A DNA stretch of 35,721 bases from a virus (IMGVR_UViG_2874956758_000001), one strand, 5' to 3'; positions 5,874 through 35,721 are shown, counted from the first letter of the stretch. Notes: generated by a model from the sequence alone, not told the origin. A program made the numbers and translations.

Positions 5874-6311
5874 CTACATCCCACAGGCCATCAATGGTAA
5901 ATGTTTTTTTTCCTTGAGTTCATCATTTATGCGTTGACATAGGGCTGTTTTGTAATCGCCTTCCCATTGTGTGTGTATCTTCCCTTGAACTCGTTGAAAC
6001 CAAATATCTAACATTTCAGTATTTGGTTGTTTACCTAGTTTACAATGAAGTTGTTGTAACTTGCCAAATTTGAGTTCATCGTCGTCATAAAGGAAGGTCA
6101 AGAGTTTTGCGAAAATAGCCATTCCCACTGGGTAGGTGGTTGGGTTTTTAGCCATGATGCTTGAAACAATTCCAAGCATTGCATCTAGTTGATGCCCACT
6201 ATTTGTGATCTTTTTCTTCCTAAATAATTTTCGCAAGAAACCATTTAAATATCTGACTGTAATTTTGGAGTTTTGATGTTTTAAAGAAAATAAATATATT
6301 GCATACAACAT
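5874..6311 (-). CDS. C-terminal fragment of the Abi-P2-like reverse transcriptase (helical C-terminal domain); frame continues from the upstream RT ORF across an A-run
   Basis: AT-rich 145-aa ORF; its frame is open upstream into the end of the RT ORF, and a third frame continues past its stop to about 5727. Confidence 0.55.
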   Translation of the reverse strand: MLYAIYLFSLKHQNSKITVRYLNGFLRKLFRKKKITNSGHQLDAMLGIVSSIMAKNPTTYPVGMAIFAKLLTFLYDDDELKFGKLQQLHCKLGKQPNTEMLDIWFQRVQGKIHTQWEGDYKTALCQRINDELKEKKHLPLMACGM

Positions 6312-6337
6312 TTTCTGTAGGGAGTTGAACGACCCTT

Positions 6338-7264
6338 CTATAATATATTCTTTTTTGCTGATTTAAGGGAGTGAAGAATGATGTCGTCATGTAGTTCTGT
6401 TTTTCTTGAGTTTAAATCAAGCCCAAACTCACCTAAGACCTCAACCAAACACTTTGAGATTTTGTCCAAATCATCTTTACTGCTTGAAAATATTCGATAA
6501 TCATCTCTGTAGCGAACTACTTTGTAATCCGTTATTTTTTGCTCTTCGGTTTTTTTTCTTAGCTGTAAATCAATTTCGCCTAAAATTAATTCGGCAAATG
6601 TATCCATCAACGTACTACCCAATGGTATTCCGTTTGTCTGATTACTCATCATCATCTGGATATGAGTGTCAATCAATCGTCCTGGGTTATTGTTATTTTC
6701 TTTCTTTTTGGCCTCTTCTTTTGAGATGAATACCCATTCAAAGCTATGAGTGTAAATAGAAGGGTAGAAGTTTGAAATGTCTGTGCTGAACATGAACTCA
6801 TACTCAAGAGCCAATGAAAGACTTTTTTGTTCAAAATCTTCCCACCAGTTTAAAACAGATGCAGCTACGTTTGAGGTGTTCTTTTTGCTCACTGGGGTAC
6901 TTGAGCATAAAAAAAGATCATTAGACTCAAACTCTCTAAATTTATTCCTTATAGCATTCCAGTTGGAAGGGGATGTAATAAGTTTACAAAAATACACGTA
7001 GTACAGAGGATTAATTAGTGTTATTCGTCGCCAGCTATATAAGCCATCTTTGCTGACTAAAACCTCGTAATTTATATTCTTCCCCATCAATGACTTGGAG
7101 TCAGGTTGGAAGTTGATTTTACCTTCATCTATCGCGGAGTTGATTTCTTCAAGCAAGGAAGAAAAATCGACATAACTGGGTAGCTCCAGAGTAGTGTATG
7201 AATCATGCTGCAGAAAATACTTAAGCGCTCTACCAGTAGTTAATTCATAAATCTTTTTCATAAT
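6338..7264 (-). CDS. Reverse transcriptase, Abi-P2 / UG-Abi class (defence-associated RT), N-terminal and catalytic part
   Basis: RT motifs seen directly: FMFSTDISNFYPSIY, GIPLGSTLMDTF, VVRYRDDYRIF (YxDD), LDLNSRKTEL. Probable start MKKIYEL at 7264; the ORF is open to 7387. AT-rich compared with phage core genes. Confidence 0.75.
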   Translation of the reverse strand: MMKKIYELTTGRALKYFLQHDSYTTLELPSYVDFSSLLEEINSAIDEGKINFQPDSKSLMGKNINYEVLVSKDGLYSWRRITLINPLYYVYFCKLITSPSNWNAIRNKFREFESNDLFLCSSTPVSKKNTSNVAASVLNWWEDFEQKSLSLALEYEFMFSTDISNFYPSIYTHSFEWVFISKEEAKKKENNNNPGRLIDTHIQMMMSNQTNGIPLGSTLMDTFAELILGEIDLQLRKKTEEQKITDYKVVRYRDDYRIFSSSKDDLDKISKCLVEVLGEFGLDLNSRKTELHDDIILHSLKSAKKNIL

Positions 7265-7467
7265 TAGTGATTTCTTCTTAAGTTGCGCACAAATAACTAC
7301 CTGTTTTCTATCATGATAACGATGCGAATGCGAGCAATTCAGGAAGTGCATTACTCTGCATCGAAGCGCACGCAAGTCAGAGAACAATAACTGCCTTGCG
7401 ACATCAGGACTGGCGCGCTAGTTGAGTGGTCATGCAACTGCATTAAAACCGCCCCATGAAGCGGGCG

Positions 7468-7486
7468 GGCGAGGCGGGGAAAGCAC
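7468..7486. other. cos: P2-type cohesive end (cos) sequence GGCGAGGCGGGGAAAGCAC
   Basis: Exact 19-nt string matching my recollection of the P2/186 cohesive end, in the expected position between the A-side variable locus and portal gene Q. Confidence 0.7.
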
Positions 7487-7628
7487 TGCGCGCTGGCGGT
7501 GGTGCTGATTTTATTTTTTCAGCGTCTGAGCGCGTCGTGATGGCGTTTAGATTGTGTGCCGGGGCGTTGGTTTGTCTGCGGGCTGTTTTGCGCGGAGGTG
7601 AGCGTGTGAGGGCGTGATGACGGGGTGT

Positions 7629-7650
7629 AAAAAAGCCGCCCGCAGGCGGC
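7629..7650 (-). terminator. Rho-independent terminator downstream of Q
   Basis: GCCGCC-CGCA-GGCGGC hairpin followed by TTTTTT on the minus strand, directly after the Q stop. Confidence 0.6.
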
Positions 7651-7655
7651 GATGT

Positions 7656-8690
7656 TCAGCCGTTGTCAGTGTCCAGTGAGTAGTTTTTAAAGCGGATGAC
7701 CTCCTGACCGAGCCAGCCGTTTATTTCCCGAATCCTGTCCTGTAACGGGATAAGCTCATTGCGGACAAAGACCTTTGCCACTTTCTCAATATCACCCAGC
7801 GACCCGACGTTCTCCGGCTTGCCGCCCATCAACTGAAAGGGGATGCGGTGCGCGTCCAGCAGGTCAGCGGCGCTGGCTTTTTTGATATTAAAAAAATCGT
7901 CCTTCGTTGCCACTTCACTGAGTGGGATAATTTTAATGCCGTCGGCTTTCCCCTGTGGGGCATAGAGAAACAGGTTTTTAAAGTTGTTGCGGCCTTTCGA
8001 CTTCACCATGTTTTCGCGGAGCATTTCGATATCGTTGCGATCCTGCACGGCATCGGTGACGTACATGATGTATCCGGCATGTGCGCCGTTTTCGTAATAC
8101 TTGCGGCGGAACAGCGTGGCTGATTCATTCAGCCAGGCAGAGTTAAGGGCGCTGAGATATTCCGGCAGGCCGTACAGCTCCTGATTGATATCCGGCTCCA
8201 GCAGGTGAAACACGGAGCCGGGCGTGAAAGGTGTTGGCTCGTTGAAGGACGGCACCCACCAGTAAATATCTTCTTCCACACCACGGCGGGTATATTTTGC
8301 CGGTGAGGTTTCCAGTCTGATGACCTTACCGGTGGTGCTGTAACGCTTTTCCAGAAACGCATTACCGAACACCAGAAAATCCAGCACAAAGCGGCTGAAA
8401 TCCTGCTGGGAAAGCCACGGATGCGGGATAAATGTCGAGGCCAGAATATTACGTTTGACGTAAATCGGGGAGCTGTGATGCACGGCAGCACGCAGGCTTT
8501 TTGCCAGACCGGTAAAGCTGACCGGTGGCTCATACCATCTGCCGTTACTGATGCACTCGACGTAATCCAGAATGTCACGGCGATCGAGTACCGGCACCGG
8601 CTCACCAAAGGTGAATGCCTCCATTTTCGGGGCGCTGGCGGTCATTGTTTTTGCCGCTGGTCGCGGTGTTTTCCCTTTTTTCTTGCTCAT
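7656..8690 (-). CDS. Q: Portal protein
   Basis: 344 aa, the size and position of P2 gpQ next to cos and upstream of P. Confidence 0.88.
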   Translation of the reverse strand: MSKKKGKTPRPAAKTMTASAPKMEAFTFGEPVPVLDRRDILDYVECISNGRWYEPPVSFTGLAKSLRAAVHHSSPIYVKRNILASTFIPHPWLSQQDFSRFVLDFLVFGNAFLEKRYSTTGKVIRLETSPAKYTRRGVEEDIYWWVPSFNEPTPFTPGSVFHLLEPDINQELYGLPEYLSALNSAWLNESATLFRRKYYENGAHAGYIMYVTDAVQDRNDIEMLRENMVKSKGRNNFKNLFLYAPQGKADGIKIIPLSEVATKDDFFNIKKASAADLLDAHRIPFQLMGGKPENVGSLGDIEKVAKVFVRNELIPLQDRIREINGWLGQEVIRFKNYSLDTDNG

Positions 8691-9208
8691 CAGTAAAACT
8701 CCAGAATGGTGGATGTCAGCGGAGTGCTGATACCGGCGGTGAGTGGCTCATTTAACAGGGCGTGCATGGTCGCCCAGGCGAGGTCGGCGTGGCTGGCTTC
8801 CTCGCTGCGGCTGGCCTCATAGGTGGCGCTGCGTCCGCTGCTGGTCATGGTCTTGCGGATAGCCATAAACGAGCTGGTGATGTCGGTGGCGCTGACGTCA
8901 TATTCCAGACAGCCACGGCGGATAACGTCTTTTGCCTTGAGCACCATTGCGGTTTTCATTTCCGGCGTGTAGCGGATATCGCGAGCGGCGGGATAGAACG
9001 AGCGCACGAGCTGGAACACACCGACACCGAGGCCGGTGGCATCAATCCCGATGTATTCGACGTTGTATTTTTCGGTGAGTTTGCGGATGGATTCTGCCTG
9101 GGTGGCAAAGTCCATGCCTTTCCACTGGTGACGCTCAAGTATTCTGAATTTGCCACCGGCCACCACCGGCGGTGCCAGCACCACGCATCCGGCGCATAGT
9201 CTTCCCAT
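8690..9208 (-). CDS. P: Terminase large subunit gpP, C-terminal (nuclease domain) portion, in a different frame from the N-terminal portion
   Basis: This frame reads GKFRILERHQWKGMDFATQAESIRKLTEKYNVEYIGIDATGLGVG; it overlaps the N-terminal ORF, whose translation degenerates into low-complexity sequence in the overlap. Confidence 0.7.
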   Translation of the reverse strand: MGRLCAGCVVLAPPVVAGGKFRILERHQWKGMDFATQAESIRKLTEKYNVEYIGIDATGLGVGVFQLVRSFYPAARDIRYTPEMKTAMVLKAKDVIRRGCLEYDVSATDITSSFMAIRKTMTSSGRSATYEASRSEEASHADLAWATMHALLNEPLTAGISTPLTSTILEFY

Positions 9209-10389
9209 TCTTCCAGCGTGTCGACCATGCAGCGTTGCAGCTCCTCGAACGGGAACACCGATGCCTTGTCGTCAACAAATTCACACATGAACAGGTTTTT
9301 AAAATCGTCGGCGCTGTTTTCGCGTTTGAGCTGCTCAATGTCGAACAGCGTGCAGCCGCCTTTCAGGGCGTCCTCAATGGTGACAATCTGCCGCCACTGG
9401 CCGTCTGCACAGAGAAGACCTCCGGCAAGGGCGTTATGACTGACGTCGATTTCCACGCGTTCGGCGGCGCTGGCGCGTCCCCGGTTGAACAGTTCACCCG
9501 ACCAGAACGGGTAGGCGTCGTGCGCCAGCGTGGACGGGGTGGAGAAATAGGTCGAGCGCAGGTGACTCTGTGAGGCCATACCTGATGCCACCTTACGCAG
9601 TACCTGAAAATTCGGGATCCAGAAAATCTCATCGACGTAAAGGTCGCCGTTATGGCTCTGTGCGGTGTTGGAGTTGGTGCCGAGAAAAATCAGTTTTGCG
9701 CCGTTATTGCCCAGGACAATCGGGTCACCGGTCAGGTCAACGTCAACCAGCCGGGCAAAGGCGATGATGTATTCACGGAACACATACGCCTGCGTTTTAC
9801 TGGCCGACAGAAAAATCTGGTTATGACCTGTTTTCAGGGCGCGCAGCAGCGCCTCGCGGGAAAAATAAAACGTTGCGCCAATCTGGCGGGATTTCAGGAT
9901 ATCGCGGATGCGGTGCTCAAGCCCGGCGCGATACCAGTGCAACTGATAGTCGAAAGACTGCTCAAAGAAAATCTGCTCCAGCTTTTCGATGGCCTCGTCA
10001 CTGAAAAAATTCTTTTTCGGTTTGCGCCGCCCGCCTTTGTTGCGGTTAGCGACGTTCGGATTAAGGTCTGCCTCGTTGCCGGTCTGACTGTAACGGTTTA
10101 CCCGTGCCAGTCGTTCAATCTGGCGTCCCAGCAGGTCAATTTCCTTGAAGTCACCGCCGGTTTTCTGCGGTTTGATGATGAGCTGGGTCAGTCGTGCTTC
10201 CAGACTCATTTCGACACGGCTGATGGGGGCAACGCTGTCCCAGCCGTCGCGCTGTTTCCAGCTCTGCACCGTCGGGCGTTTCATCTGCAACATGGCGGCA
10301 ATCTGCGGCACGGAAAACCCCTGCCAGTACAGCAGCGCCGCCTGACGACGCGGGTCGTGTAAAAGAGTGGTGTCTGTGGTGATGGTCAT
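8956..10389 (-). CDS. P: Terminase large subunit gpP (ATPase), N-terminal portion; frame lost near 9165-9195
   Basis: Probable start MTITTD at 10389 with GAGGT ribosome-binding site. Protein-like up to WEDYAPDA, then WCWHRRWW and Pro/Ser-rich nonsense. Combined span 8690-10389 is about 566 codons, against roughly 590 aa recalled for P2 gpP. Confidence 0.75.
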   Translation of the reverse strand: MTITTDTTLLHDPRRQAALLYWQGFSVPQIAAMLQMKRPTVQSWKQRDGWDSVAPISRVEMSLEARLTQLIIKPQKTGGDFKEIDLLGRQIERLARVNRYSQTGNEADLNPNVANRNKGGRRKPKKNFFSDEAIEKLEQIFFEQSFDYQLHWYRAGLEHRIRDILKSRQIGATFYFSREALLRALKTGHNQIFLSASKTQAYVFREYIIAFARLVDVDLTGDPIVLGNNGAKLIFLGTNSNTAQSHNGDLYVDEIFWIPNFQVLRKVASGMASQSHLRSTYFSTPSTLAHDAYPFWSGELFNRGRASAAERVEIDVSHNALAGGLLCADGQWRQIVTIEDALKGGCTLFDIEQLKRENSADDFKNLFMCEFVDDKASVFPFEELQRCMVDTLEEWEDYAPDAWCWHRRWWPVANSEYLSVTSGKAWTLPPRQNPSANSPKNTTSNTSGLMPPASVSVCSSSCARSIPPLAISATRRK

Positions 10390-15888: not shown

Positions 15889-16318
15889 TGCCGTCACGGT
15901 GCTGAAAACTAACCCCGATATGCTGCGGATATTCGTGGATAACGGGAGTATTGCCTCCACACTGGCGGCGTCGCTGTCATTCGAAAAGCGTTACACGCTC
16001 AATGTGATTGTGACCGACTTTACCGGTAATTTTGACCTGCTCATCGTGCCGGTGCTGGTGTGGCTGCGGGAAAATCAGCCCGACATCATGACCACCGACG
16101 AAGGTCAGAAAAAAGGTTTCACGTTTTATGCAGACATCAACAATGACAGCAGCTTTGATATCAGCATCAGCCTGATGCTGACCGAGCGAACGCTGGTCAG
16201 TGAGGTTGACGGTGCGCTGCATGTGAAGAATATCCCGGAACCTCCGACGCCGGAGCCAGTCAATCGCCCGATGGAGCTTTATATCAATGGTGAACTGGTG
16301 AGCAAGTGGGATGAATGA
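15851..16318 (+). CDS. R: Tail completion protein R
   Basis: 155 aa, the size and position of P2 gpR. Confidence 0.8.
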   Translation: MLKPDSLRRALTDAVTVLKTNPDMLRIFVDNGSIASTLAASLSFEKRYTLNVIVTDFTGNFDLLIVPVLVWLRENQPDIMTTDEGQKKGFTFYADINNDSSFDISISLMLTERTLVSEVDGALHVKNIPEPPTPEPVNRPMELYINGELVSKWDE

Positions 16319-16517
16319 GTTTAAGCGTTTTGAAGACCGGCTGACCGGACTGATTGAATCGCTGTCACCGTCTGGGCGTCGGCGACTGAGTGCAGAACTG
16401 GCGAAACGTCTGCGGCAGAGTCAGCAGCGTCGGGTGATGGCACAGAAAGCCCCGGACGGCACACCCTACGCACCACGCCAGCAGCAGAGCGCCAGAAAAA
16501 AAGACCGGTCGCGTTAA
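16311..16517 (+). CDS. S: Tail completion protein S, N-terminal portion; frame breaks at an A7 run near 16494-16500
   Basis: 68-aa ORF ending ...SARKKDRSR; removing one A from the run would read ARKKTGRVKRKMFAKLITS and join the next ORF. Combined span 16311-16764 is about 150 codons, the size of P2 gpS. Confidence 0.7.
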   Translation: MNEFKRFEDRLTGLIESLSPSGRRRLSAELAKRLRQSQQRRVMAQKAPDGTPYAPRQQQSARKKDRSR

Positions 16518-16524
16518 GCGAAAA

Positions 16525-16764
16525 ATGTTTGCGAAACTTATCACCAGTCGTTTTTTGCATATCCGCGCCAGCCCTGAACAGGCATCAATGGAGTTTTACG
16601 GCGGGAAGTCACCGAAAATCGCCAGTGTGCATCAGTTCGGTCTGTCGGAAGAAACCCGGAAAGACGGTAAGAAAAATGATTATCCGGCGCGTCCTCTGCT
16701 CGGCTTTACCGGTGAGGATGTGCAGATAATTGAAGAGATTATCCTGGCTCACCTCGACCGTTAG
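16525..16764 (+). CDS. S: Tail completion protein S, C-terminal portion
   Basis: 79-aa ORF in the frame that the upstream S fragment would enter after a 1-nt change in the A-run. Confidence 0.7.
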   Translation: MFAKLITSRFLHIRASPEQASMEFYGGKSPKIASVHQFGLSEETRKDGKKNDYPARPLLGFTGEDVQIIEEIILAHLDR

Positions 16765-16830
16765 TTGTGCCATTCCCGACACATCATCGTTACATTGCCG
16801 CCGGTATGACCCGGCGGCATCCTTCCCGTT

Positions 16831-19256: not shown

Positions 19257-21446
19257 ATGAGCACAAAATTCAAAACCGTTATCACCACTGCCGGTGCAGC
19301 AAAGCTGGCAGCGGCAACCGCACCGGGAGGGCGGAAGGTCAACATTACCACGATGGCCGTCGGGGATGGCGGTGGTAAATTGCCTGTCCCGGATGCCGGA
19401 CAGACCGGGCTTATCCACGAAGTCTGGCGACATACGCTGAACAAAATCAGCCAGGACAAACGAAACAGTAATTATATTATCGCAGAGCTGGTTATTCCGC
19501 CGGAGGTGGGCGGTTTCTGGATGCGTGAGCTTGGCCTGTACGATGATGCGGGAACATTAATTGCCGTGGCGAACATGGCCGAAAGTTATAAGCCAGCTCT
19601 TGCCGAAGGCTCAGGGCGTTCGCAGACCTGTCGCATGGTCATCATCGTCAGCAGTGTGGCCTCAGTGGCGCTGACCATTGACACCACAACGGTGATGGCG
19701 ACGCAGGATTACGTTGATGACAAAATTGCAGAGCATGAACAGTCACGACGTCACCCGGACGCCTCGCTGACCGCAAAAGGTTTTACTCAGTTAAGCAGTG
19801 CGACCAACAGCACGTCTGAAACACTGGCCGCAACGCCGAAAGCGGTAAAGGCCGCCTATGACCTGGCTAACGGGAAATATACCGCACAGGACGCCACCAC
19901 AGCGCGAAAAGGTCTTGTCCAGCTCAGTAGCGTCACCAACAGTGATTCTGAAACGCTGGCTGCAACGCCAAAGGCGGTAAAGGCTGCGTATGACCTTGCT
20001 AACGGGAAATACACTGCACAGGATGCCACCACGGCGCGAAAAGGGCTTGTCCAGCTCAGTAGCGCCACCAACAGTGATTCTGAAACGCTGGCCGCAACAC
20101 CAAAAGCGGTGAAGTCTGCCTATGACAATGCTGAAAAACGTCTTCAGAAAGATCAGAATGGTGCGGATATTCCGGGAAAGGATACCTTCACGAAAAATAT
20201 CGGTGCCTGTCGTGCTTATAGCGGCGCTTTGAGCACTGAAGCCGGAAACTGGACAACCGCTCAGTTTATTGAATGGCTGGATTCCCGTGGTGCATTTAAT
20301 CATCCGTACTGGATGTGCAAAGGCTCCTGGTCATATGCAAATAACAAAATCATTACGGATACCGGATGTGGTGATATCCACCTGGCTGGTTGTGTCGTCG
20401 AGGTCATGGGAACTAAATCTGCAATCACTATCCGAGTGACCACGCCGACAACATCAAGCGGTGGCGGTACAACCAGCGCGCAATTCACTTACATTAATCA
20501 TGGGGACGGCTACTCCCCCGGCTGGCGTCGTGACTGGAATCGTCAGGGCGACTCAATGACCGGAACGATTAATCAGGATGGCGGAAGCCAGAATGCCTAT
20601 ATGTCTACGGCCTTATGTTCAGGCACCAGAGGCGGCAAAAAATATCTCAGAAAGTTTCGTGGTGGAGAAGGAGACACTATCTGGCATGAAACAGTACAGG
20701 GCGGGGTAGTTCGCTGGGCGACTGGTAATACTGATGCTCAGGAAGAATTATCACTCAGCTCCGCTTATGGTCTCCGTTCAAGAGGTGAGATTACATCAAG
20801 CAGTGCTAATGGTCTGCGCATTGCTTATGGCAATTATGGATTCTTTATCAGGAATGATGGCAGCAGCACTTATTTTATGTTGACTAAATCAGGTGACAGA
20901 TTAGGTACTTATAATAATTTAAGACCACTGATTATAAATGATGCCACGGGTGCTGTATCAATGGGGCATGGCCTGAGTGTTACTGGTGATATTGTCTCAA
21001 GTACCAAAGTACGTGCCGGTAGCGGGAAAAAGTTCACGGTCAGCAGCAGCAATACATCCACGAAGGAAGCTGCATTCAATTTGTGGGGAAACTCAAGTCG
21101 TCCGGTGGTGGCTGAATTAGGTGATGATGCAGGCTGGCATTTTTACAGTCAGAGAAATACAGATAACAGCATCACTTTTGCTGTTAACGGGCAGGTATCA
21201 CCATCTAACTATAGTAATTTTGATTCACGCTATGTCCGGGATATCCGGCTTGGTGGTGCTGCCACATACAAACCTGCGAACAATGGCATGACATGGACAC
21301 ATAAGGCACCGTCCGGGTGTGTATATTCCGGCATTATTGTTCAGGATACCGGCTCAAACTCTGCCGATAACATTGGTGGCGTATATTACAGACCGGTGCA
21401 GAAATACATTAACGGGACTTGGTATAACGGTAAGCGTACAGCCTGA
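19257..21446 (+). CDS. H: Tail fibre protein H, with internal tandem repeats and a C-terminus altered by IS66 insertion
   Basis: 729 aa; the N-terminal region is typical of P2-type fibres; the last codons (GKRTA, stop) lie inside the IS66 left inverted repeat. Confidence 0.85.
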   Translation: MSTKFKTVITTAGAAKLAAATAPGGRKVNITTMAVGDGGGKLPVPDAGQTGLIHEVWRHTLNKISQDKRNSNYIIAELVIPPEVGGFWMRELGLYDDAGTLIAVANMAESYKPALAEGSGRSQTCRMVIIVSSVASVALTIDTTTVMATQDYVDDKIAEHEQSRRHPDASLTAKGFTQLSSATNSTSETLAATPKAVKAAYDLANGKYTAQDATTARKGLVQLSSVTNSDSETLAATPKAVKAAYDLANGKYTAQDATTARKGLVQLSSATNSDSETLAATPKAVKSAYDNAEKRLQKDQNGADIPGKDTFTKNIGACRAYSGALSTEAGNWTTAQFIEWLDSRGAFNHPYWMCKGSWSYANNKIITDTGCGDIHLAGCVVEVMGTKSAITIRVTTPTTSSGGGTTSAQFTYINHGDGYSPGWRRDWNRQGDSMTGTINQDGGSQNAYMSTALCSGTRGGKKYLRKFRGGEGDTIWHETVQGGVVRWATGNTDAQEELSLSSAYGLRSRGEITSSSANGLRIAYGNYGFFIRNDGSSTYFMLTKSGDRLGTYNNLRPLIINDATGAVSMGHGLSVTGDIVSSTKVRAGSGKKFTVSSSNTSTKEAAFNLWGNSSRPVVAELGDDAGWHFYSQRNTDNSITFAVNGQVSPSNYSNFDSRYVRDIRLGGAATYKPANNGMTWTHKAPSGCVYSGIIVQDTGSNSADNIGGVYYRPVQKYINGTWYNGKRTA
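19775..20135 (+). repeat. About three tandem copies of a ~120-bp (40 aa) unit inside H (motif SETLAATPKAVKAAYDLANGKYTAQDATTARKGLVQLSS)
   Basis: Near-identical protein and DNA repeats seen directly; this is a common phage tail-fibre repeat motif. Confidence 0.8.
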
Positions 21447-21499
21447 ACCGTCTGGTCAGAATCTGACGAATTAGACAAAGTGGTGTCCACCAATAAGTA

Positions 21500-21901
21500 G
21501 TGGGAACCAAAGTGTCAGATATGCAGAAAAATGTGACTCCCGGCAGGCGAAAAGGCTGCCCTAATTATCCTCCCGAATTTAAACAGCAGCTCGTTGCTGC
21601 CTCCTGTGAACCCGGGATATCCATCTCAAAACTTGCTCTTGAAAATGGCATTAACGCCAATCTGTTGTTCAAATGGCGACAACAATGGCGCGAGGGAAAG
21701 CTGCTATTACCTTCTTCAGAGAGCCCCCAGCTACTTCCTGTGACTCTCGATGCAGCTGCCGAACAGCCAGAATCGCTCGCAGAGGACCCGGAAACCCTCA
21801 GTATCAGCTGTGAGGTAACGTTCCGGCACGGGACGCTCCGCTTCAATGGCAATGTCAGCGAAAAGCTCCTGACTCTGCTGATACAGGAACTGAAGCGATG
21901 A
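21500..21901 (+). CDS. tnpA: IS66-family accessory protein TnpA (HTH)
   Basis: 133-aa first ORF of the element; exact start uncertain. Confidence 0.7.
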   Translation: MGTKVSDMQKNVTPGRRKGCPNYPPEFKQQLVAASCEPGISISKLALENGINANLLFKWRQQWREGKLLLPSSESPQLLPVTLDAAAEQPESLAEDPETLSISCEVTFRHGTLRFNGNVSEKLLTLLIQELKR

Positions 21902-22245
21902 TCCCGTTACCTTCCGGGACCAAAATTTGGCTGGTTGCCGGTATCACCGATATGAGAAATGGCTTCAACGGTCTGGCTGCGAAAGTACAGACGGCGCTGA
22001 AAGACGATCCCATGTCCGGCCATGTTTTCATTTTCCGGGGCCGCAGCGGCAGTCAGGTTAAACTGCTGTGGTCCACCGGTGACGGACTGTGCCTCCTGAC
22101 CAAACGGCTGGAGCGTGGGCGCTTCGCCTGGCCGTCAGCCCGTGATGGCAAAGTGTTCCTTACGCAGGCGCAGCTGGCGATGCTGCTGGAAGGTATCGAC
22201 TGGCGACAGCCTAAGCGGCTGCTGACCTCCCTGACCATGCTGTAA
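21898..22245 (+). CDS. tnpB: IS66-family Orf2 / TnpB
   Basis: 115 aa; start overlaps the tnpA stop; conserved IS66 Orf2-like sequence ([11 protein letters not shown]...[24 protein letters not shown]). Confidence 0.8.
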
Positions 22246-22294
22246 ATCTCTTTATCCTGGTTGTCACAGAATAAGCCCGGTAAAATACGGGCTT

Positions 22295-23827
22295 ATGAAC
22301 GACATCTCTTCTGACGACATCTTCCTGCTGAAACAGCGCCTGGCCGAACAGGAGATCCACGCCCTGCAGGAAAAGCTGAGCAACCGGGAGCGCGAAATAG
22401 ACCATCTGCAGGCGCAGCTGGATAAACTCCGCCGGATGAACTTCGGCAGTCGTTCCGAAAAAGTCTCCCGCCGTATCGCACAAATGGAAGCCGATCTGAA
22501 CCGGCTTCAGAAAGAGAGCGATACGCTGACTGGTAGGGTGTATGACCCGGCAGTACAGCGTCCGTTGCGTCAGACCCGCACCCGTAAGCCGTTCCCTGAA
22601 TCACTACCCCGTGACGAAAAGCGACTGTTGCCTGCGGCGCCGTGCTGCCCGAACTGCGGCGGTTCACTGAGCTATCTGGGCGAGGATACCGCCGAACAGC
22701 TGGAGTTGATGCGTAGTGCCTTCCGGGTTATCCGGACGGTACGGGAAAAACATGCCTGTACTCAGTGCGATGCCATCGTGCAGGCACCTGCACCTTCGCG
22801 GCCCATCGAGCGGGGTATCGCCGGACCGGGGCTGCTGGCCCGCGTGCTGACCTCGAAGTATGCAGAGCACACCCCGCTGTATCGCCAGTCAGAAATATAC
22901 GGCCGGCAAGGTGTGAAGCTGAGCCGTTCACTGCTGTCGGGCTGGGTGGATGCATGCTGCCGGCTGCTGTCTCCGCTGGAAGAGGCGCTTCATGGCTATG
23001 TCATGACTGACGGCAAACTCCATGCTGATGATACCCCGGTCCAGGTACTGATGCCGGGTAATAAGAAGACGAAGACCGGGCGGTTGTGGGCGTATGTTCG
23101 TGATGACCGCAATGCCGGGTCAGCGTTGGCACCTGCAGTGTGGTTCGCTTACAGCCCGGACAGAAAAGGCATCCATCCGCAGACTCATCTTGCTTGCTTC
23201 AGCGGTGTGCTGCAAGCGGATGCGTACGCCGGGTTCAACGAGCTGTACCGCAATGGTGGGATAACGGAAGCTGCCTGCTGGGCTCATGCCCGCCGAAAGA
23301 TCCACGATGTGCACGTCCGCATCCCGTCAGCACTGACGGAAGAAGCCCTGGAGCAGCTCGGTCAGTTGTACGCCATAGAGGCGGATATAAGGGGAATGCC
23401 GGCAGAGCAGCGGCTTGCTGAACGTCAGCGAAAAACGAAACCGCTGTTGAAATCCCTGGAAAGCTGGTTGCGTGAAAAGATGAAGACCCTGTCGCGACAC
23501 TCAGAGTTGGCGAAGGCGTTCGCGTACGCACTTAACCAGTGGCCGGCACTGACGTACTATGCGAACGATGGCTGGGTGGAAATCGACAACAACATCGCTG
23601 AAAATGCCCTGCGGGCGGTCAGTCTGGGTCGTAAAAACTTCCTGTTCTTCGGCTCTGACCATGGTGGTGAGCGGGGAGCGCTACTGTACAGCCTGATCGG
23701 GACGTGCAAACTGAATGACGTGGATCCAGAAAGCTACCTTCGCCATGTGCTTGGCGTCATAGCAGACTGGCCGGTCAACCGGGTCAGCGAACTGCTTCCG
23801 TGGCGCATAGCACTGCCAGCTGAATAA
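22295..23827 (+). CDS. tnpC: IS66-family transposase TnpC
   Basis: 510 aa; N-terminal coiled coil, Cys cluster (CPNCG...CTQC), DDE-type core; ends just inside the right inverted repeat. Confidence 0.85.
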
Positions 23828-23889
23828 CACATCCCCGTCAATACGGCCCTCGCTGTACGCTTACGTATAACGTGGCGCAGGTATAATTT

Positions 23890-24417
23890 ATGCAGCATTT
23901 GATAAATATAACGGCAGGTAATCCAAAAACGGTTGAACAATATCAATTGACAAAGGACTTTGATGTTGTCTGGTTTTTTTCAGAAGATGGTAAGAACTGG
24001 TACGAAGAACAAAAGTATTTTGCTGATGACACGATAAAAATAGCGTGCGACAAAGATAATATTATCCGCTATGTGGAAAAGGATGTGACAGCTATCAGAC
24101 CGGATGGATTAAGTGTTGTTGAAGTGCCGGATATTACTGCTAACCGACGGGCGGACATTTCAGGGAACTGGATGTTTAAGGACGGTACAGTGATTAAACG
24201 CATTTATACGGCAGAGGAATTGCAGCAGCAGGCAGAAAATCGGAAAGCCAGACTTCTTGCAGATGCTGAATCCGTGATTTTGCCGCTGGAGCGCGCTGTC
24301 AGGCTGAATATGGCAACAGATGAGGAGCGCAGTCGACTGGAGGCATGGGAACGCTACAGTGTTCTGGTCAGTCGTGTGGATCCTGCAAATCCTGAATGGC
24401 CGGAAATGCCGCAATAA
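23890..24417 (+). CDS. G: Tail fibre assembly chaperone
   Basis: 175 aa, the size of P2 gpG; now separated from H by the IS66 element. Confidence 0.8.
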
Positions 24418-24509
24418 GTTGTATGAGCTTACATATCTATTGCGTAGAGTAAAGCATAATCTGACAGTCCGCTCTGTGCCAGAAGCGGACATAGCAGGTG
24501 GATTTGCCC

Positions 24510-25415
24510 CTATATTTCCAGACATCTGTTATCACTTAACCCATTACAAGCCCGCTGCCGCAGATATTCCCGTGGCGAGCGATAACCCAGCGCACTATGC
24601 GGATGCCATTCGTTATAATGCTCGAACGCCTCTGCAAGGTTCTTTGCTGCCGTTAACCCGTCTGGTTTGGGCATGATACTGATGTAGTCACGCTTTATCG
24701 TTTTCACGAAGCTCTCTGCTATTCCGTTACTCTCCGGACTCCGCACCGCCGTGTTCTTCGGTTCAAGTCCCAACATCCGGGCGAACTGGCGTGTTTCATT
24801 AGCCCGGTAGCATGAACCATTATCCGTCAGCCACTCCACTGGAGACGACGGAAGATCGTTGCCGAAGCGGCGTTCCACCGCTCCCAGCATGACGTCCTGT
24901 ACTGTTTCACTGTTGAAGCCGCCGGTAGTCACCGCCCAGTGCAGTGCCTCACGATCACAGCAGTCCAGCGCGAACGTGACACGCAGTCTCTCTCCGTTAT
25001 CACAGCAGAACTCGAACCCGTCAGAGCACCATCGCTGATTGCTTTCTTTCACGGCCACTCTGCCTGTATGTGCCCGTTTCGATGGCGGTACAGCAGGTTT
25101 TCGCTCAAGCAACAGCGCATTCTGGCGCATGATCCGGTAAACACGTTTGGCATTGATCGCAGGCATACCATCAAGTTCTGCCTGTCTGCGAAGCAGCGCC
25201 CATACCCGACGATAACCATACGTGGGCAGCTCTCCGATAACATGGTGTATACGGAGAAGCACATCCGTATCATCAGTGTGACGACTGCGGCGGCCATCCA
25301 TCCAGTCATCGGTTCGTCTGAGAATGACGTGCAACTGCGCACGCGACACCCGGAGACAACGGCTGACTAAGCTTACTCCCCATCCCCGGGCAATAAGGGC
25401 GCGTGCGCTATCCAC
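24510..25415 (-). CDS. insD: IS2 transposase OrfB (DDE integrase-like); expressed as an InsCD fusion by -1 frameshift
   Basis: 301 aa, recognised as IS2 InsD. Confidence 0.9.
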
Positions 25416-25738
25416 TTTTTTGCCCGTCCATATTCAACGGCTTCTTTGAGGAGTTCATTTTCCATCGTTTTCTTGCCGAGCAGGCGCTGGAGTTCTTTAA
25501 TCTGCTTCATGGCGGCAGCAAGTTGAGAGGCAGGAACAACCTGTTCTCCGGCGGCCACAGCAGTAAGACTTCCTTCCTGGTATTGCTTACGCCAGAGAAA
25601 TAACTGGCTGGCTGCTACACCATGTTGCCGGGCAACGAGGGAGACCGTCATCCCCGGTTCAAAGCTCTGCTGAACAATTGCGATCTTTTCCTGTGTGGTA
25701 CGCCGTCTGCGTTTCTCCGGCCCTAAGACATCAATCAT
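25373..25738 (-). CDS. insC: IS2 OrfA (HTH regulator)
   Basis: 121 aa from [13 protein letters not shown]; overlaps the insD start. Confidence 0.9.
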
Positions 25739-25901
25739 CTGTTCTCCAATGACTAGTCTAAAAACTAGTATTAAGACTATCACTTATTTAAGTGATACTG
25801 GTTGTCTGGAGATTCAGGGGGCCAGTCTAGCAGGTGCCAGATGCATTTGTTATTCTTCATTGAATTGAGCAGTATCCTTAACAGGAACTCTGAATACATA
25901 A

Positions 25902-26540
25902 ATGAAGATGAAAAACATGTCTGAAGTGTTGACCCAAGAAAAGCTTATTTTTGTTGCCCAGAGACTAAAGGCCCTCGCGCAGTCAGGCCTGACCTATTCA
26001 AAAGACGTCTTTGACAAGGAACGCTATGAAGCCTTGCGTGAAATTGCCGCTGGACTGCTGAGTTCGCAGTTTGATATTAGCCGCAATGATTTGTTTCATG
26101 TATCGGAAACGGGTTACGCGACGCCCAAAACAGATGTGCGTGCGTTTATCCTGCGTAATAATCGTATTCTGATGGTGAAAGAGGCTGCAGATGGATTATG
26201 GAGTCTTCCTGGCGGATGGGCAGATGTTGGAGATACACCTTCTGAAGCTGTGCGTCGAGAGGTCGAAGAAGAAACCGGATTAAAAGTCAGAGTGACTAAA
26301 CTATTGGGAGTTTGGGATCGTAATCTTCACGGCCATCCGCCTTTACCCTGGCATGTTTACAAGCTGATTTTTCTCTGTGAAGAAGTAGGTGGCAGCCTGT
26401 CAATCAGCCATGAGTCACTCGATGCTGATTTTTTTGATGTCAACGACCTGCCTGAATTGTCGCTTTCAAGAATTGTGCCTGAGCAGATTGCTGTCAGCCT
26501 GAGAGTAGCGAAAGGTGATGAAAAAACATGGTTTGATTAA
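25902..26540 (+). CDS. NUDIX hydrolase with an N-terminal helical extension
   Basis: NUDIX box GGWADVGDTPSEAVRREVEEETG (Gx5Ex7REUxEExGU pattern) in the C-terminal half of a 212-aa protein; first gene of a two-gene cassette in the G-FI variable locus. Confidence 0.8.
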   Translation: MKMKNMSEVLTQEKLIFVAQRLKALAQSGLTYSKDVFDKERYEALREIAAGLLSSQFDISRNDLFHVSETGYATPKTDVRAFILRNNRILMVKEAADGLWSLPGGWADVGDTPSEAVRREVEEETGLKVRVTKLLGVWDRNLHGHPPLPWHVYKLIFLCEEVGGSLSISHESLDADFFDVNDLPELSLSRIVPEQIAVSLRVAKGDEKTWFD

Positions 26541-26563
26541 CTTTCTTCTGCAACCATTAAGGA

Positions 26564-27208
26564 ATGGCAATGATATTCAACGCTAAGGGTTTTTTATTCG
26601 ATATGGACGGTACGCTGGTTGATTCAACAGCCGTAGTGGAAAGCGTCTGGAGAGATTTTTGTGCAGAATACGGTCTTGATTCTCAGGCTGTGATTGCTTA
26701 CGCACACGGGCGGCAAACGATTGATACACTAACGCATTTTATTGGTGCAGGTGAGAAAACCAATAAAATCGCGGCCTCACTCGAAGAGGTTGAAATCAAC
26801 ACGACAGAAGGCGTTACTGAAGTAAAAGGGGCCGCTGCACTCTTATCAAAACTGCCACCGGATAGCTGGGCACTTGTCACTTCTGCAGGCAGAATGCTTG
26901 CCGAAAACAGGATGAAAGCGGCTAATCTCCCCTTACCCATAGTAATGGTGTGTGCAGAAGATGTAATGACGGGAAAACCAAGTCCCGAGGGTTACATCAA
27001 AGCAGCTTTGGCTTTGGGCCTTGAGCCTGGTGAATGCGTGGTATTTGAGGATGCATCTGCGGGTATAAAAGCAGGGCTGGCAAGTGGAGCTTCGGTAATA
27101 GCTGTTCAGCCTGACGCTCTGGGATCATCTGAAGCCCATGCCGTCAGCGAACTGTCTGACATTATGGTCAAGATTTCCGGAGAACGTTTCAATATCATCT
27201 GTGGTTAA
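26564..27208 (+). CDS. HAD-superfamily hydrolase (subfamily IA phosphatase / beta-phosphoglucomutase-like)
   Basis: HAD motif I FDMDGTLVDS, motif II LVTSAG, motif IV FEDASAGIKAG; 23 bp downstream of the NUDIX gene. True start may be the second ATG at 26570. Confidence 0.8.
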   Translation: MAMIFNAKGFLFDMDGTLVDSTAVVESVWRDFCAEYGLDSQAVIAYAHGRQTIDTLTHFIGAGEKTNKIAASLEEVEINTTEGVTEVKGAAALLSKLPPDSWALVTSAGRMLAENRMKAANLPLPIVMVCAEDVMTGKPSPEGYIKAALALGLEPGECVVFEDASAGIKAGLASGASVIAVQPDALGSSEAHAVSELSDIMVKISGERFNIICG

Positions 27209-27360
27209 TCACGTTACACAATACGCATCAATGGACGCTGAGTAGTTCGCGAGTTTTAAACTTCCAACGTCCGCTTTTCGCTCCAAGCAGACTGTCAGAT
27301 TTGATAGCGTTTTGGCTATGTAAATTGTCAGTCGGAAAATGAGTGAATACAAATCAGGAC

Positions 27361-27390
27361 AGGCGGGCTGATTGCCCGCCTTTTCTTTAT
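27361..27390 (+). terminator. Rho-independent terminator after the NUDIX-HAD cassette
   Basis: GGCGGGC-TGATT-GCCCGCC hairpin followed by TTTTCTTTAT. Confidence 0.6.
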
Positions 27391-34187: not shown

Positions 34188-34214
34188 TAAAAAATAAGCC
34201 CGTGTAAGGGAGAT
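34188..34214. other. attR: Prophage right attachment core (P2-type 27-bp att core AAAAAATAAGCCCGTGTAAGGGAGATT)
   Basis: String matches my recollection of the P2 att core; lies between ogr and the first host gene, where attR is expected. Confidence 0.65.
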
Positions 34215-34359
34215 TACACAGGCTAAGGAGGTGGTTCCTGGTACAGCTAGCATTTTATGGGTTATGTTTTTCAGCGAAATGGATGATAACCTTAATAAAT
34301 GCAGCTGTATGTGATCGGTTTCTAAGAATTTTCCATCCGGGAAAAATAATCGAAATTAA

Positions 34360-35721
34360 TCACTTACCGTGGGGGTTACGCGTGGTTTCCCCGGAGAAAT
34401 TACGCATCAGCAGCGCGTAATTTAGCTCAAGATCCTGCGGCACCGGGATCCACACAGTATAACCATCGCCTGGTGCGACCGGCATAGCTTCACCTTTGGC
34501 GTTTTCCATGTGCTCAAGGGTAAAGTTAATGTTGCCTTGCGGCGTCATCAGCTCAAGGCTGTCGCCAACGGAGAATTTATTTTTCACCGCTACCGCCGCG
34601 AGGTCGCCCTTGCGCTCACCGGTAAACTCACCAACAAACTGCTGGCGGTCAGAAACTGAATAACCGTATTCGTAGTTCTGATAATCGTCGTGAGTATGAC
34701 GACGCAGGAAACCTTCGGTATAGCCACGATGCGCCAGACCTTCCAGAGTTTCCAGCAGGCTGGTATCGAATGGTTTTCCCGCAGCTGCGTCATCGATAGC
34801 TTTACGGTAAACCTGCGCGGTGCGTGCGCAATAGTAGAAAGATTTGGTACGGCCTTCGATTTTCAGCGAATGCACGCCCATTTTGGTCAGGCGTTCTACA
34901 TGGGCGATGGCGCGCAGATCTTTCGAGTTCATGATGTAAGTGCCGTGCTCATCTTCAAACGCGGTCATATACTCGCCCGGACGCTGGGCCTCTTCGATCA
35001 TAAACACTTTGTCGGTTGGTGCGCCGATACCCAGCGTCGGCTCAACATTTTGCACCGGAATCGGCTCGTACTTGTGTACGATGTTGCCAACGTCATCTTC
35101 TTTCCCTTCCTGGACGTTGTACTCCCAGCGGCAGGCGTTGGTGCAGGTGCCCTGGTTCGGGTCGCGCTTGTTGATATAGCCAGAGAGCAGGCAGCGACCG
35201 GAGTAGGCCATGCACAGCGCACCGTGAACGAAGATCTCGATCTCCATATCCGGCACCTGATTGCGGATCTCTTCAATCTCTTCCAGCGACAGCTCGCGAG
35301 AGAGGATCACGCGGGTCAGTCCCATTTGCTGCCAGAATTTCACCGTCGCCCAGTTCACGGCGTTAGCCTGTACCGAGAGATGGATCGGCATTTCAGGGAT
35401 GTGCTCGCGCACCAGCATAATCAGCCCTGGATCGGACATAATCAGCGCATCCGGCCCCATTTCCACCACCGGTTTCAGGTCACGGATAAAGGTTTTCAGC
35501 TTGGCGTTGTGCGGTGCAATGTTGACCACGACATAAAACTTTTTCCCCAGCGTGTGGGCTTCATTGATGCCGAGCTGAAGATTTTCGTGGTTAAATTCGT
35601 TGTTGCGCACACGTAGGGAGTAACGTGGCTGGCCCGCATAAACAGCATCTGCGCCATAAGCGAAAGCGTAACGCATATTTTTCAGCGTTCCCGCCGGGGA
35701 AAGGAGTTCCGGTTTAAACAT
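34360..35721 (-). CDS. yegQ: Host U32-family peptidase-like protein YegQ (tRNA hydroxylation protein TrhP)
   Basis: 453 aa, recognised as E. coli YegQ; complete within the window, start codon at 35719-35721. In E. coli K-12 this gene neighbours a cryptic P2 remnant (ogrK, yegZ). Confidence 0.85.
   Translation of the reverse strand: MFKPELLSPAGTLKNMRYAFAYGADAVYAGQPRYSLRVRNNEFNHENLQLGINEAHTLGKKFYVVVNIAPHNAKLKTFIRDLKPVVEMGPDALIMSDPGLIMLVREHIPEMPIHLSVQANAVNWATVKFWQQMGLTRVILSRELSLEEIEEIRNQVPDMEIEIFVHGALCMAYSGRCLLSGYINKRDPNQGTCTNACRWEYNVQEGKEDDVGNIVHKYEPIPVQNVEPTLGIGAPTDKVFMIEEAQRPGEYMTAFEDEHGTYIMNSKDLRAIAHVERLTKMGVHSLKIEGRTKSFYYCARTAQVYRKAIDDAAAGKPFDTSLLETLEGLAHRGYTEGFLRRHTHDDYQNYEYGYSVSDRQQFVGEFTGERKGDLAAVAVKNKFSVGDSLELMTPQGNINFTLEHMENAKGEAMPVAPGDGYTVWIPVPQDLELNYALLMRNFSGETTRNPHGK

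Follow-up and report, generated by a model that had tools for sequence, protein, structure and literature searches.

A complete IS2 element lies between the tail fibre assembly gene G and a pair of cargo genes, coding for a NUDIX hydrolase and a HAD-type phosphatase, in a P2-like Escherichia coli prophage, and the end of the element that faces the cargo is IRL. We propose, with moderate confidence, that this is an ordinary IS2 in the leader of a cargo cassette, which insulates the cargo rather than activating it. According to this proposal, IS2 transposed into the 5' leader of a NUDIX-HAD cassette in the G/FI slot of the prophage. In the IS-free ancestor, the cassette would have been co-oriented between G and a terminator of the phage backbone and open to read-through from the late operon, and Ogr-dependent late V-W-J-I-H-G transcripts could have entered it. 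IS2 and an ISEc8 element in the end of gene H would now break this path, and any remaining expression of the cassette would originate within the 72 bp between IS2 and the NUDIX gene, where the best candidate promoter is found at positions 25847-25875.

The IS2 element and the prophage that carries it

The window, that is, the whole stretch of viral DNA that was analysed (35,721 nucleotides), holds a P2-like prophage that is integrated next to cyaR/yegQ in E. coli. The features of the insertion and its left-hand surroundings are as follows.

21430..23864, plus strand: ISEc8 (IS66 family; tnpA, tnpB, tnpC) with the 8-bp duplication GTATAACG
23890..24417, plus strand: tail fibre assembly gene G, 175 aa, now between ISEc8 and IS2 (Pfam Caudo_TAP; RefSeq relatives)
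24494..24498: left copy of the target duplication GCAGG, 5 bp
24499..25829, minus strand: complete IS2 (IS3 family), 1331 bp (ends, length, DNA identity, NCBIfam)
24499..24539, minus strand: IRR, 41 bp, TGGATTTGCCCCTATATTTCCAGAC, with an outward-directed -35, facing the 3' end of G (sequence, repeat pair I1, PMC9330008, PMC3299598)
24510..25415, minus strand: insD/orfB, 301 aa, with an rve integrase core (ORF, Pfam rve, rve_3 and HTH_21, NCBIfam IS2 TnpB)
25373..25738, minus strand: insC/orfA, 121 aa (ORF, Pfam HTH_Tnp_1, NCBIfam IS2 TnpA)
25415..25421, minus strand: A6G window for programmed -1 frameshifting, AAAAAAG, where orfA and orfB overlap (sequence)
25774-25782: P_IRL, inward-directed extended -10 promoter, TGATAGTCT, just inside IRL (PMC3299598)
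25788..25829, minus strand: IRL, 42 bp, facing the cassette and containing the -10 (TAGACT) of Pjunc (sequence, PMC3299598)
25830..25834: right copy of the target duplication GCAGG, 5 bp

The element has the length of IS2 and imperfect terminal repeats of 41 and 42 bp, as reported for IS2 (PMC3299598), which end in 5'-TGG...CTA-3'. In the window, the left end reads TGGATTTGCCCC... on the IRR side, its start being read out as TGGATTTGCCCCTATATTTCC, and the right end reads ...GGGGGCCAGTCTA on the IRL side, with the terminal letters ...GGCCAGTCTA. A repeat search recovered the terminal inverted repeats as pair I1 (33 nt, 79%; arms 24507-24539 and 25788-25820). Both reading frames score above the curated cut-offs of the corresponding NCBIfam profiles, orfA with 274 bits against 229 for 'IS2 repressor TnpA' and orfB with 728 bits against 597 for 'IS2 transposase TnpB'. 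Copies annotated as 'IS3-like element IS2' share 99.9% DNA identity with the window element over positions 1-1331, and the A6G frameshift motif is that described for IS2 (PMC3299598). In length, repeats, 5-bp duplication and the arrangement of orfA and orfB with A6G, the element is like the IS2 of E. coli K-12 and most other E. coli, and it shows no difference of substance from the reference. Of 5426 complete E. coli genomes, 4854 contain IS2, the median genome (roughly 5 Mb) having it at 4 places, and the window element is one more copy of this complete, standard IS2 at a new site. All sequence features of the copy are intact, and it is probably recent. A first-pass annotation of the same DNA had described a complete 1331-bp IS2 with a GCAGG duplication, insC and insD on the minus strand, and the insC-proximal end (IRL) facing the cassette. 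Each of these points was borne out: completeness by the ends, length, identity and profile scores; the duplication by both flanks in the window and by its single copy at empty sites; the strand by the ORFs 25738-25373 and 25415-24510; and the orientation by the positions of IRL (25788-25829) and of IRR (24499-24539, toward G).

The prophage has also been hit elsewhere. ISEc8 replaces the last codons of the tail fibre gene H and parts H from G, two genes that are separated by a gap of 3 nt in relatives, and the tail gene S (gpS) contains a +1 frameshift in an A-run, which is seen in two independent assemblies. The E. coli assembly GCA_031665835.1 is 99.986% identical to the window over 22,190 bp and contains the same two IS elements. 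The prophage is defective, grounded and decaying, and IS2 is one of several lesions. Transposable elements have been described as 'almost nonexistent' in P2-like phages (PMC13586616) and as rare in wild-type phages (PMC3091744), so the IS load fits a grounded prophage, and the IS2 copy can serve as a marker of how far the prophage has decayed. As an event, the insertion is of an already known kind, one among thousands of IS2 copies in E. coli, and matters little in itself.

The insertion site and a second insertion beside hairpin A

The first-pass annotation had suggested a comparison with IS-free relatives, and such relatives exist. For the empty-site search, both flanks were joined and queried against complete E. 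coli genomes. The cassette runs uninterrupted across the insertion point, with 99.3-99.7% identity, in approximately 19 complete E. coli genomes. The empty-site sequence ...AAGCGGACATAGCAGGTGCCAGATGC..., with one GCAGG, is present in these complete E. coli genomes, in 12 IMG/VR contigs and in two P2-like prophages (CP165408.1 and OZ040468.1). These two prophages were found by a look-up of the exact NUDIX protein, and in both G is directly followed by the cassette and then by FI, without an IS. CP165408.1 is the immediate IS-free equivalent of the window, with its prophage at the same ogr/yegQ attachment site. The empty sites with a single GCAGG prove both the insertion and the duplication. The junction between the window G gene and the cassette was found in no complete RefSeq E. 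coli genome, the exact right IS2 junction is absent from IMG/VR, and a flexible pattern of IRL, 0-30 nt and leader had no match in IMG/VR or JGI metagenome contigs.

The DNA into which IS2 moved belongs to the cargo. The features of the cassette are as follows.

24467..24490, plus strand: hairpin A, GTCCGCTCTGTGCCAGAAGCGGAC, left cargo boundary (homology break points, pattern enrichment, IMG/VR family)
25902..26540, plus strand: NUDIX hydrolase with a Nudix_N domain, 212 aa (Pfam; identical to WP_000782641.1)
26564..27208, plus strand: HAD-IA phosphatase, 214 aa (Pfam; NCBIfam sugar-phosphatase-like, below the equivalog cut-off)
27269..27292, plus strand: hairpin B, GTCCGCTTTTCGCTCCAAGCAGAC, right cargo boundary (homology break points, pattern enrichment)

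Lambdoid prophages that carry the cassette are homologous to the window over 24467-24498 plus 25830-27293, and P2-like prophages with other cargo are homologous to it up to 24495 and again from 27266. The two ranges overlap, and the overlaps are two 24-nt imperfect palindromes, hairpins A and B. IS2 sits inside the mobile 1.49-kb module that they enclose, in its 75-nt leader and 4-8 nt 3' of hairpin A, and its right end is 72 bp away from the NUDIX ATG (25902). The annotation had placed the element in the intergenic DNA between G and the NUDIX gene. The position between the two genes stands; judging from the homology break points, however, the DNA that was hit is not native P2 intergenic DNA but belongs to the mobile NUDIX-HAD module, of which it forms the 5' leader.

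The cargo occupies the slot between G and the tail sheath gene FI, which is equivalent to the Z/fun locus of P2, where the same slot follows G and precedes the terminator, pF and FI. This locus is a known variable hotspot of P2-like phages (PMC13586616; PMC9122126). In close relatives, the slot is filled by two small hypothetical genes, an HNH endonuclease gene or FlxA-like genes. P2 itself carries fun(Z) between the same hairpin A and a degenerate hairpin B, whereas the cargo in the window is the NUDIX-HAD pair instead of fun(Z) and is interrupted by an IS. The same 1.49-kb cargo was found with 99.5-99.9% identity at no fewer than four unrelated prophage positions and is always cut out at the same two hairpins.

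A second IS2 was identified next to the same cassette in GCA_900457245.1, in a different prophage context near an integrase gene and yjjG/rimI/holD. This IS2 has the same orientation, lies 8 bp further upstream, is 98.3% identical to the window copy and is flanked by the duplication CGGAC, with which hairpin A ends; it is independent from the insertion in the window. In addition, the leader of the cassette in GCA_900457245.1 contains an IS66-family element with the duplication AATTGAGC, equivalent to window positions 25863-25870, which splits the candidate promoter. Two IS2 hits within 8 bp point to a target hot spot or to selection. Either the DNA 3' of hairpin A would be a preferred IS target, or disruption of the control region would have been selected repeatedly, and we regard this explanation as possible, if doubtful. 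It fits with independent IS2 copies that differ in sequence, duplication (GCAGG and CGGAC) and prophage context, with the IS66-family hit in the same leader, and with the reported preference of IS2 for intrinsically bent DNA (PMC3299598). If IS2 inserted uniformly, a pair of hits within 20 bp in a few dozen examined lineages would, by a rough estimate, have an expectation of the order of 1e-7. However, the insertions come from two lineages only, the IMG/VR and JGI metagenome contigs contain no IS2-leader junction, the ~19-22 cassette-bearing complete RefSeq E. coli genomes are all free of an IS at this place, and a comparison of ~130 loci revealed no IS2 ends beside A or B hairpins beyond the two lineages. 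The shared orientation could reflect expression-linked selection and could equally reflect a target hot spot; in two cases it proves nothing. If the local preference suggested by the two independent hits holds, it could inform our view of IS2 target selection.

Orientation of IS2 and transcription of the cargo

The documented activating element of IS2, and its only documented outward promoter element, is the -35 in IRR. It forms part of the minicircle promoter Pjunc as well, whose -10 comes from IRL; IRL also adjoins the weak P_IRL, and the IRL-associated promoters are directed inward (PMC9330008; PMC3299598). Activation of ampC, acrEF and neoR by IS2 depends on a fusion promoter that combines the IRR -35 with a resident -10 (PMC9330008). 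As in ampC::IS2 (Jaurin and Normark, 1983), acrEF and neoR, the element in the window is inserted shortly upstream of a gene. However, these cases use the IRR -35, and in the window it is IRL that faces the gene, with IRR (24499-24539) toward G. Since IRR faces G and IRL faces the cassette, the documented fusion-promoter route is closed to the cassette. Consensus and PWM scans of the IRL/leader junction revealed no -10 hexamer at 16-18 bp from an IS-borne -35. On the G side of IRR, a weak TGGAAA-N18-TGCTAT can be seen by eye, which does not rank with the leading PWM candidates of that strand and which would give transcripts antisense to G. In general, the promoter predictions at the site are weak in every direction.

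It could nevertheless be argued that an outward promoter near IRL, or a hybrid promoter formed at the junction, drives the cassette, as IS2 is known to activate its neighbours ampC, acrEF and neoR via fusion promoters (PMC9330008). In accordance with this idea, the candidate TTAAGA-N17-GATACT (25771-25799) reads outward across IRL, and its PWM score of 8.0 is as good as that of the best candidate in the leader. This score corresponds to the 99.97th percentile of ~357,000 positions, but about a hundred other sites in the window are as good, which puts the candidate at background level, and the consensus scan missed it. The two independent insertions 8 bp apart in the same orientation might also be taken as a sign of activation; the same orientation in two insertions is, however, a 50% chance expectation, and in the second lineage the later IS66-family insertion between IS2 and the cassette would break an IS2-driven transcript. 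Considering also that the documented outward -35 faces G and that the IRL promoters read inward, we regard activation of the cassette by IS2 as improbable, although some IS-borne read-out toward the cassette may occur.

A hybrid promoter at the IS2/cassette junction was considered separately and rejected, as the consensus scan was empty on the plus strand, with no sigma-70 consensus promoter between 23800 and 27600, and the PWM candidates were weak and background-like. The PWM scan showed that the junction hexamer TAGCAG is recreated after the insertion because IS2 ends in TA.

The transcription signals that bear on the insulating role proposed for IS2 are the following.

25835..25901, plus strand: remaining cassette leader, with the best, weak sigma-70 candidate TTGTTA (25847-25852)-N17-CAGTAT (25870-25875) (PWM scan)
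27361..27390, plus strand: strong intrinsic terminator of the backbone after the cargo slot, upstream of the pF/FI region (terminator scan; same sequence in P2)

No terminator was predicted between G and the cassette in the terminator scan, and a strong one follows hairpin B, which argues for read-through into the ancestral cassette. In P2, the sequence of the 27361-27390 terminator stands upstream of the annotated pF activator site, and the P2 annotation puts both this site and the transcription start after the equivalent point. In the classical literature of the 1970s-80s, an IS2 whose genes run antiparallel to the operon that it hits ('orientation I') is strongly polar. Silencing of the upstream late-operon read-through by IS2 is a reading that we consider plausible, and we infer from the orientation of the element and the predicted signals that read-through has been lost, that activation is lacking and that the promoter of the cassette itself lies in what remains of the leader. 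The first-pass annotation had proposed that IS2 may set the expression of the cargo. This proposal is a generic one and is weakened by the orientation of the element: a regulatory effect is possible, but activation by the known mechanism is excluded by an IRR that faces G. The annotation also held that its proposal would fall if the cassette promoter were mapped entirely downstream of 25830 and unaffected by the insertion; the best predicted promoter (25847-25875) lies wholly downstream of this position, although as a prediction only.

The leader candidate could also mean that the insertion changes little. Its sequence lies wholly downstream of IS2 and is unaltered by it, and one might argue that the cassette has its own promoter within 25835-25901, was never dependent on upstream transcription and is merely accompanied by an IS that changes nothing that matters. 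At least four unrelated prophage contexts contain the cassette together with the same 104-nt leader, as would be expected for a self-contained moron, and the intact ORFs of the cassette match those of IS-free copies exactly or nearly so. We consider such a neutral insertion unlikely. The candidate promoter, with a PWM score of 7.07 (99.94th percentile of the window), is not significant alone, is weak, with matches at 4/6 and 3/6 positions, and was not picked up by the consensus scan. The cassette runs in the direction of the upstream phage operon in every context, which fits read-through expression, and, unless this 45-bp stretch is a structural hot spot, recurrent IS hits in it would not be expected if the site were neutral. 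The insertion offers a natural experiment to see if expression of the NUDIX-HAD cargo requires late-operon read-through. Footprinting of the leader with chromosomal NUDIX homologues from Pseudescherichia, Leclercia, Kluyvera and Sodalis was given up, as these proteins, with at most 72% amino acid identity, are too distant.

Hairpin-bounded cassettes and their cargo

An exact IMG/VR scan for GTCCGCT-N10-AGCGGAC yielded at least 120 loci. The matches listed fall into two conserved centre classes, yTGTGCCAnn (A) and nnTCGCTCAn (B), and the B centre resembles the reverse complement of the A centre. Among the 128 loci listed, an A site is followed by 0.6-3.4 kb of cargo and then by a B site, tandem arrays are frequent, with 39-42 nt from the start of B to the start of the next A, and opposite hairpin orientations are rare. 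The DNA upstream of A and downstream of B is specific for the phage backbone (P2-like or lambdoid), and the DNA between A and B is specific for the cargo, which can be on either strand. Other cargo found between the hairpins includes genes for a reverse transcriptase, a Cap12-type TIR protein, a deaminase, a GNAT protein, an HNH protein and a small tyrosine recombinase, and both P2 fun(Z) and flxA of the K-12 Qin prophage are bounded by the same hairpins.

Short stem-loop sequences that border variable cargo are known from the promoter-early stem-loop (PeSL) cassettes shuffled in T4-type phages and from integron attC cassettes. The A/B hairpins are similar to these in their conserved stem-loop borders and in the tandem arrays with constant short junctions. 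Integron attC sites differ from them: the hairpins lack the attC core motifs (R''/R' boxes), and neither an integrase platform nor a conserved integrase was found beside the arrays in the loci inspected. Unlike both of these systems, the A/B hairpins belong to temperate P2-like and lambdoid phages, and the changes in their stems are mostly not compensatory. The stems are kept mainly as sequence, with few compensatory changes, and this covariation check does not support a reading of the hairpins as RNA structures. Neither hairpin matched an Rfam family, the sole match in the window being CyaR. A sigma-54 reading of the conserved motif TGGCACAG upstream of hairpin A was rejected, since its GG-to-GC spacing is one base too long. 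A literature search for the hairpin sequences found no paper; the sites may already be described (Nilsson et al., 2004).

One might speculate that IS2 is an incidental marker here and that the cargo is one unit of a hairpin-bounded system for cassette exchange in P2-like and lambdoid phages of enterobacteria, a reading that we put forward tentatively and consider unlikely as it stands. Each cassette would have a type A site (GTCCGCT-yTGTGCCAnn-AGCGGAC) on one side and a type B site (GTCCGCT-nnTCGCTCAn-AGCGGAC) on the other. With inverted arms of 7-9 bp and an asymmetric centre, such sites would look like the core site of a recombinase. Exchange of A with A and of B with B between co-resident phages would amount to a natural recombinase-mediated cassette exchange with two heterospecific sites, and, if real, would explain why identical cargo is found in unrelated phage backbones. 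The DNA beside site A may in addition be a structural hot spot for IS2. Alternatively, the A and B sites may merely supply ~28 bp of homology for general recombination, or they may act at the RNA level. According to a 2026 survey, recombination at the P2/P4 hotspots 'still needs to be elucidated' (PMC13586616). If the hairpins are exchange sites, they would supply the mechanism, so far missing, by which temperate phages swap their accessory and defence genes so rapidly. The hairpin-bounded cassettes and the recurrent IS hits beside hairpin A matter more than IS2 itself.

The function of the cargo can be approached through its relatives. Both cassette genes are intact; the NUDIX protein has the sequence of WP_000782641.1, and the HAD protein shows 2 residue differences. 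Among PADLOC models, the NUDIX protein has a weak, domain-level match to the candidate PDC-S07 (E 6.6e-10), and the HAD protein has none. Chromosomal NUDIX homologues in the other Enterobacteriaceae named above (Pseudescherichia, Leclercia, Kluyvera and Sodalis) come without a HAD partner. The closest solved structures to the NUDIX protein are 3q1p/3q4i (E 7e-50), along with the ADP-ribose pyrophosphatase 3o8s; 3q1p is the CDP-choline pyrophosphatase 'CDP-Chase' of Bacillus cereus. By comparison with NCBIfam and the PDB, the HAD protein is similar to phosphatases that act on sugar phosphates and glycerol-3-phosphate. A reasonable guess is that the two enzymes carry out a two-step breakdown, in which a nucleoside-diphosphate-X is converted to X-phosphate and then to X.

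Hairpins bounding the cargo

Two conserved, 24-nt imperfect palindromes delimit the cargo of the window:
24467-24490, type A hairpin, left boundary, GTCCGCT-yTGTGCCAnn-AGCGGAC
27269-27292, type B hairpin, right boundary, GTCCGCT-nnTCGCTCAn-AGCGGAC

Hairpins A and B form the edges of cargo modules both in P2-like prophages, where they occupy the G/FI slot, and in lambdoid prophages (the window and compared loci L001-L004, L085-L212 and L213-L215), and they are the exact points at which homology between unrelated backbones breaks off. Tandem stacking of such modules is frequent among the matches listed, with a B-to-A junction of 39-42 nt. P2 fun(Z) and flxA of the K-12 Qin prophage have the same hairpin-type bounds as the cargo of the window. 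The hairpin sequences matched no Rfam family, and a literature search yielded no paper containing either of them.

P2-like and lambdoid backbones (L003, L004, L085 and L101-L123) share a further conserved motif, (A)TGGCACAG(A/G)GTA(A/G)A, whose distance upstream of hairpin A is 27-28 nt. This motif and the centre of the A site, CTCTGTGCCA, are reverse complements, which makes an alternative long-range pairing possible. The version of the window is degenerate:
within 24440-24466, motif upstream of hairpin A, TTGCGTAGAGTAAAG
Reading this motif as a sigma-54 site was ruled out by the spacing.

In a lambdoid contig from IMG/VR (L108), a 200-aa stand-alone tyrosine recombinase (9384-9986; Pfam Phage_integrase, E 2e-17) lies within one hairpin-bounded cargo unit; the adjoining 326-aa protein has no Pfam match.

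Spread of the NUDIX-HAD module

The NUDIX-HAD pair (window 25902-27208) is a 1.49-kb module, copies of which occupy four or more unrelated prophage positions with 99.5-99.9% identity (L001, L002, L092, L218 and L233), and the assembly index lists the exact NUDIX protein in 2319 of its blocks. The chromosomal homologues closest to this protein, from Pseudescherichia, Leclercia, Kluyvera and Sodalis, reach at most 72% amino-acid identity, and no HAD gene is present beside them. The closest structures to the NUDIX protein are of the 3q1p type and ADP-ribose pyrophosphatase.

Insertions in the cassette leader

The leader of this cassette, located between hairpin A and the NUDIX start codon, carries a second, independent IS2 in a different prophage context in GCA_900457245.1 (L233, about 6062-7392). 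Its duplication, CGGAC, corresponds to window 24486-24490, 8 bp upstream of the IS2 site of the window, and both elements have the same orientation. Between this IS2 and the NUDIX gene, the same assembly contains an IS66-family insertion (L233, about 7445-9961) with the duplication AATTGAGC, equivalent to window 25863-25870. Such insertions suggest that the leader is either a hot spot for insertion sequences or under selection.

At the IS2 end facing the cassette, a candidate promoter is directed into the element:
25824-25853, minus strand, promoter-like site (PWM score 8.0) in which ATAACA from the flank and the hexamer TAGACT of IRL are separated by an 18-nt spacer that includes TG

This predicted promoter could increase transposase expression at the IS2 site of the window, whereas Pjunc is described in the literature as requiring exactly 17 nt, compared with the 18-nt spacer seen here.

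Prophage decay and attachment site

Additional features concern the state and position of the prophage:
21430-23864, ISEc8 (IS66 family; tnpA, tnpB, tnpC), flanked by the 8-bp duplication GTATAACG (21422-21429 and 23865-23872)
about 16311-16770, tail completion gene S, split by a +1 frameshift at an A-run near 16496-16502
34192-34277, minus strand, CyaR/RyeE sRNA gene (Rfam, 100.7 bits), right end
34360-35721, minus strand, yegQ-like peptidase U32 gene, right end

ISEc8 interrupts the tail fibre gene H within its final codons and parts it from the chaperone gene G, which is thus flanked on both sides by different insertion sequences. The run in S is A7, compared with A6 in the intact 150-aa S of CP165408.1, an IS-free P2-like relative. 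The split S recurs in an independent short-read assembly, and the prophage is therefore defective. The CyaR/RyeE and yegQ-like genes place this P2-like prophage at the cyaR/yegQ attachment site, which it has in common with CP165408.1.
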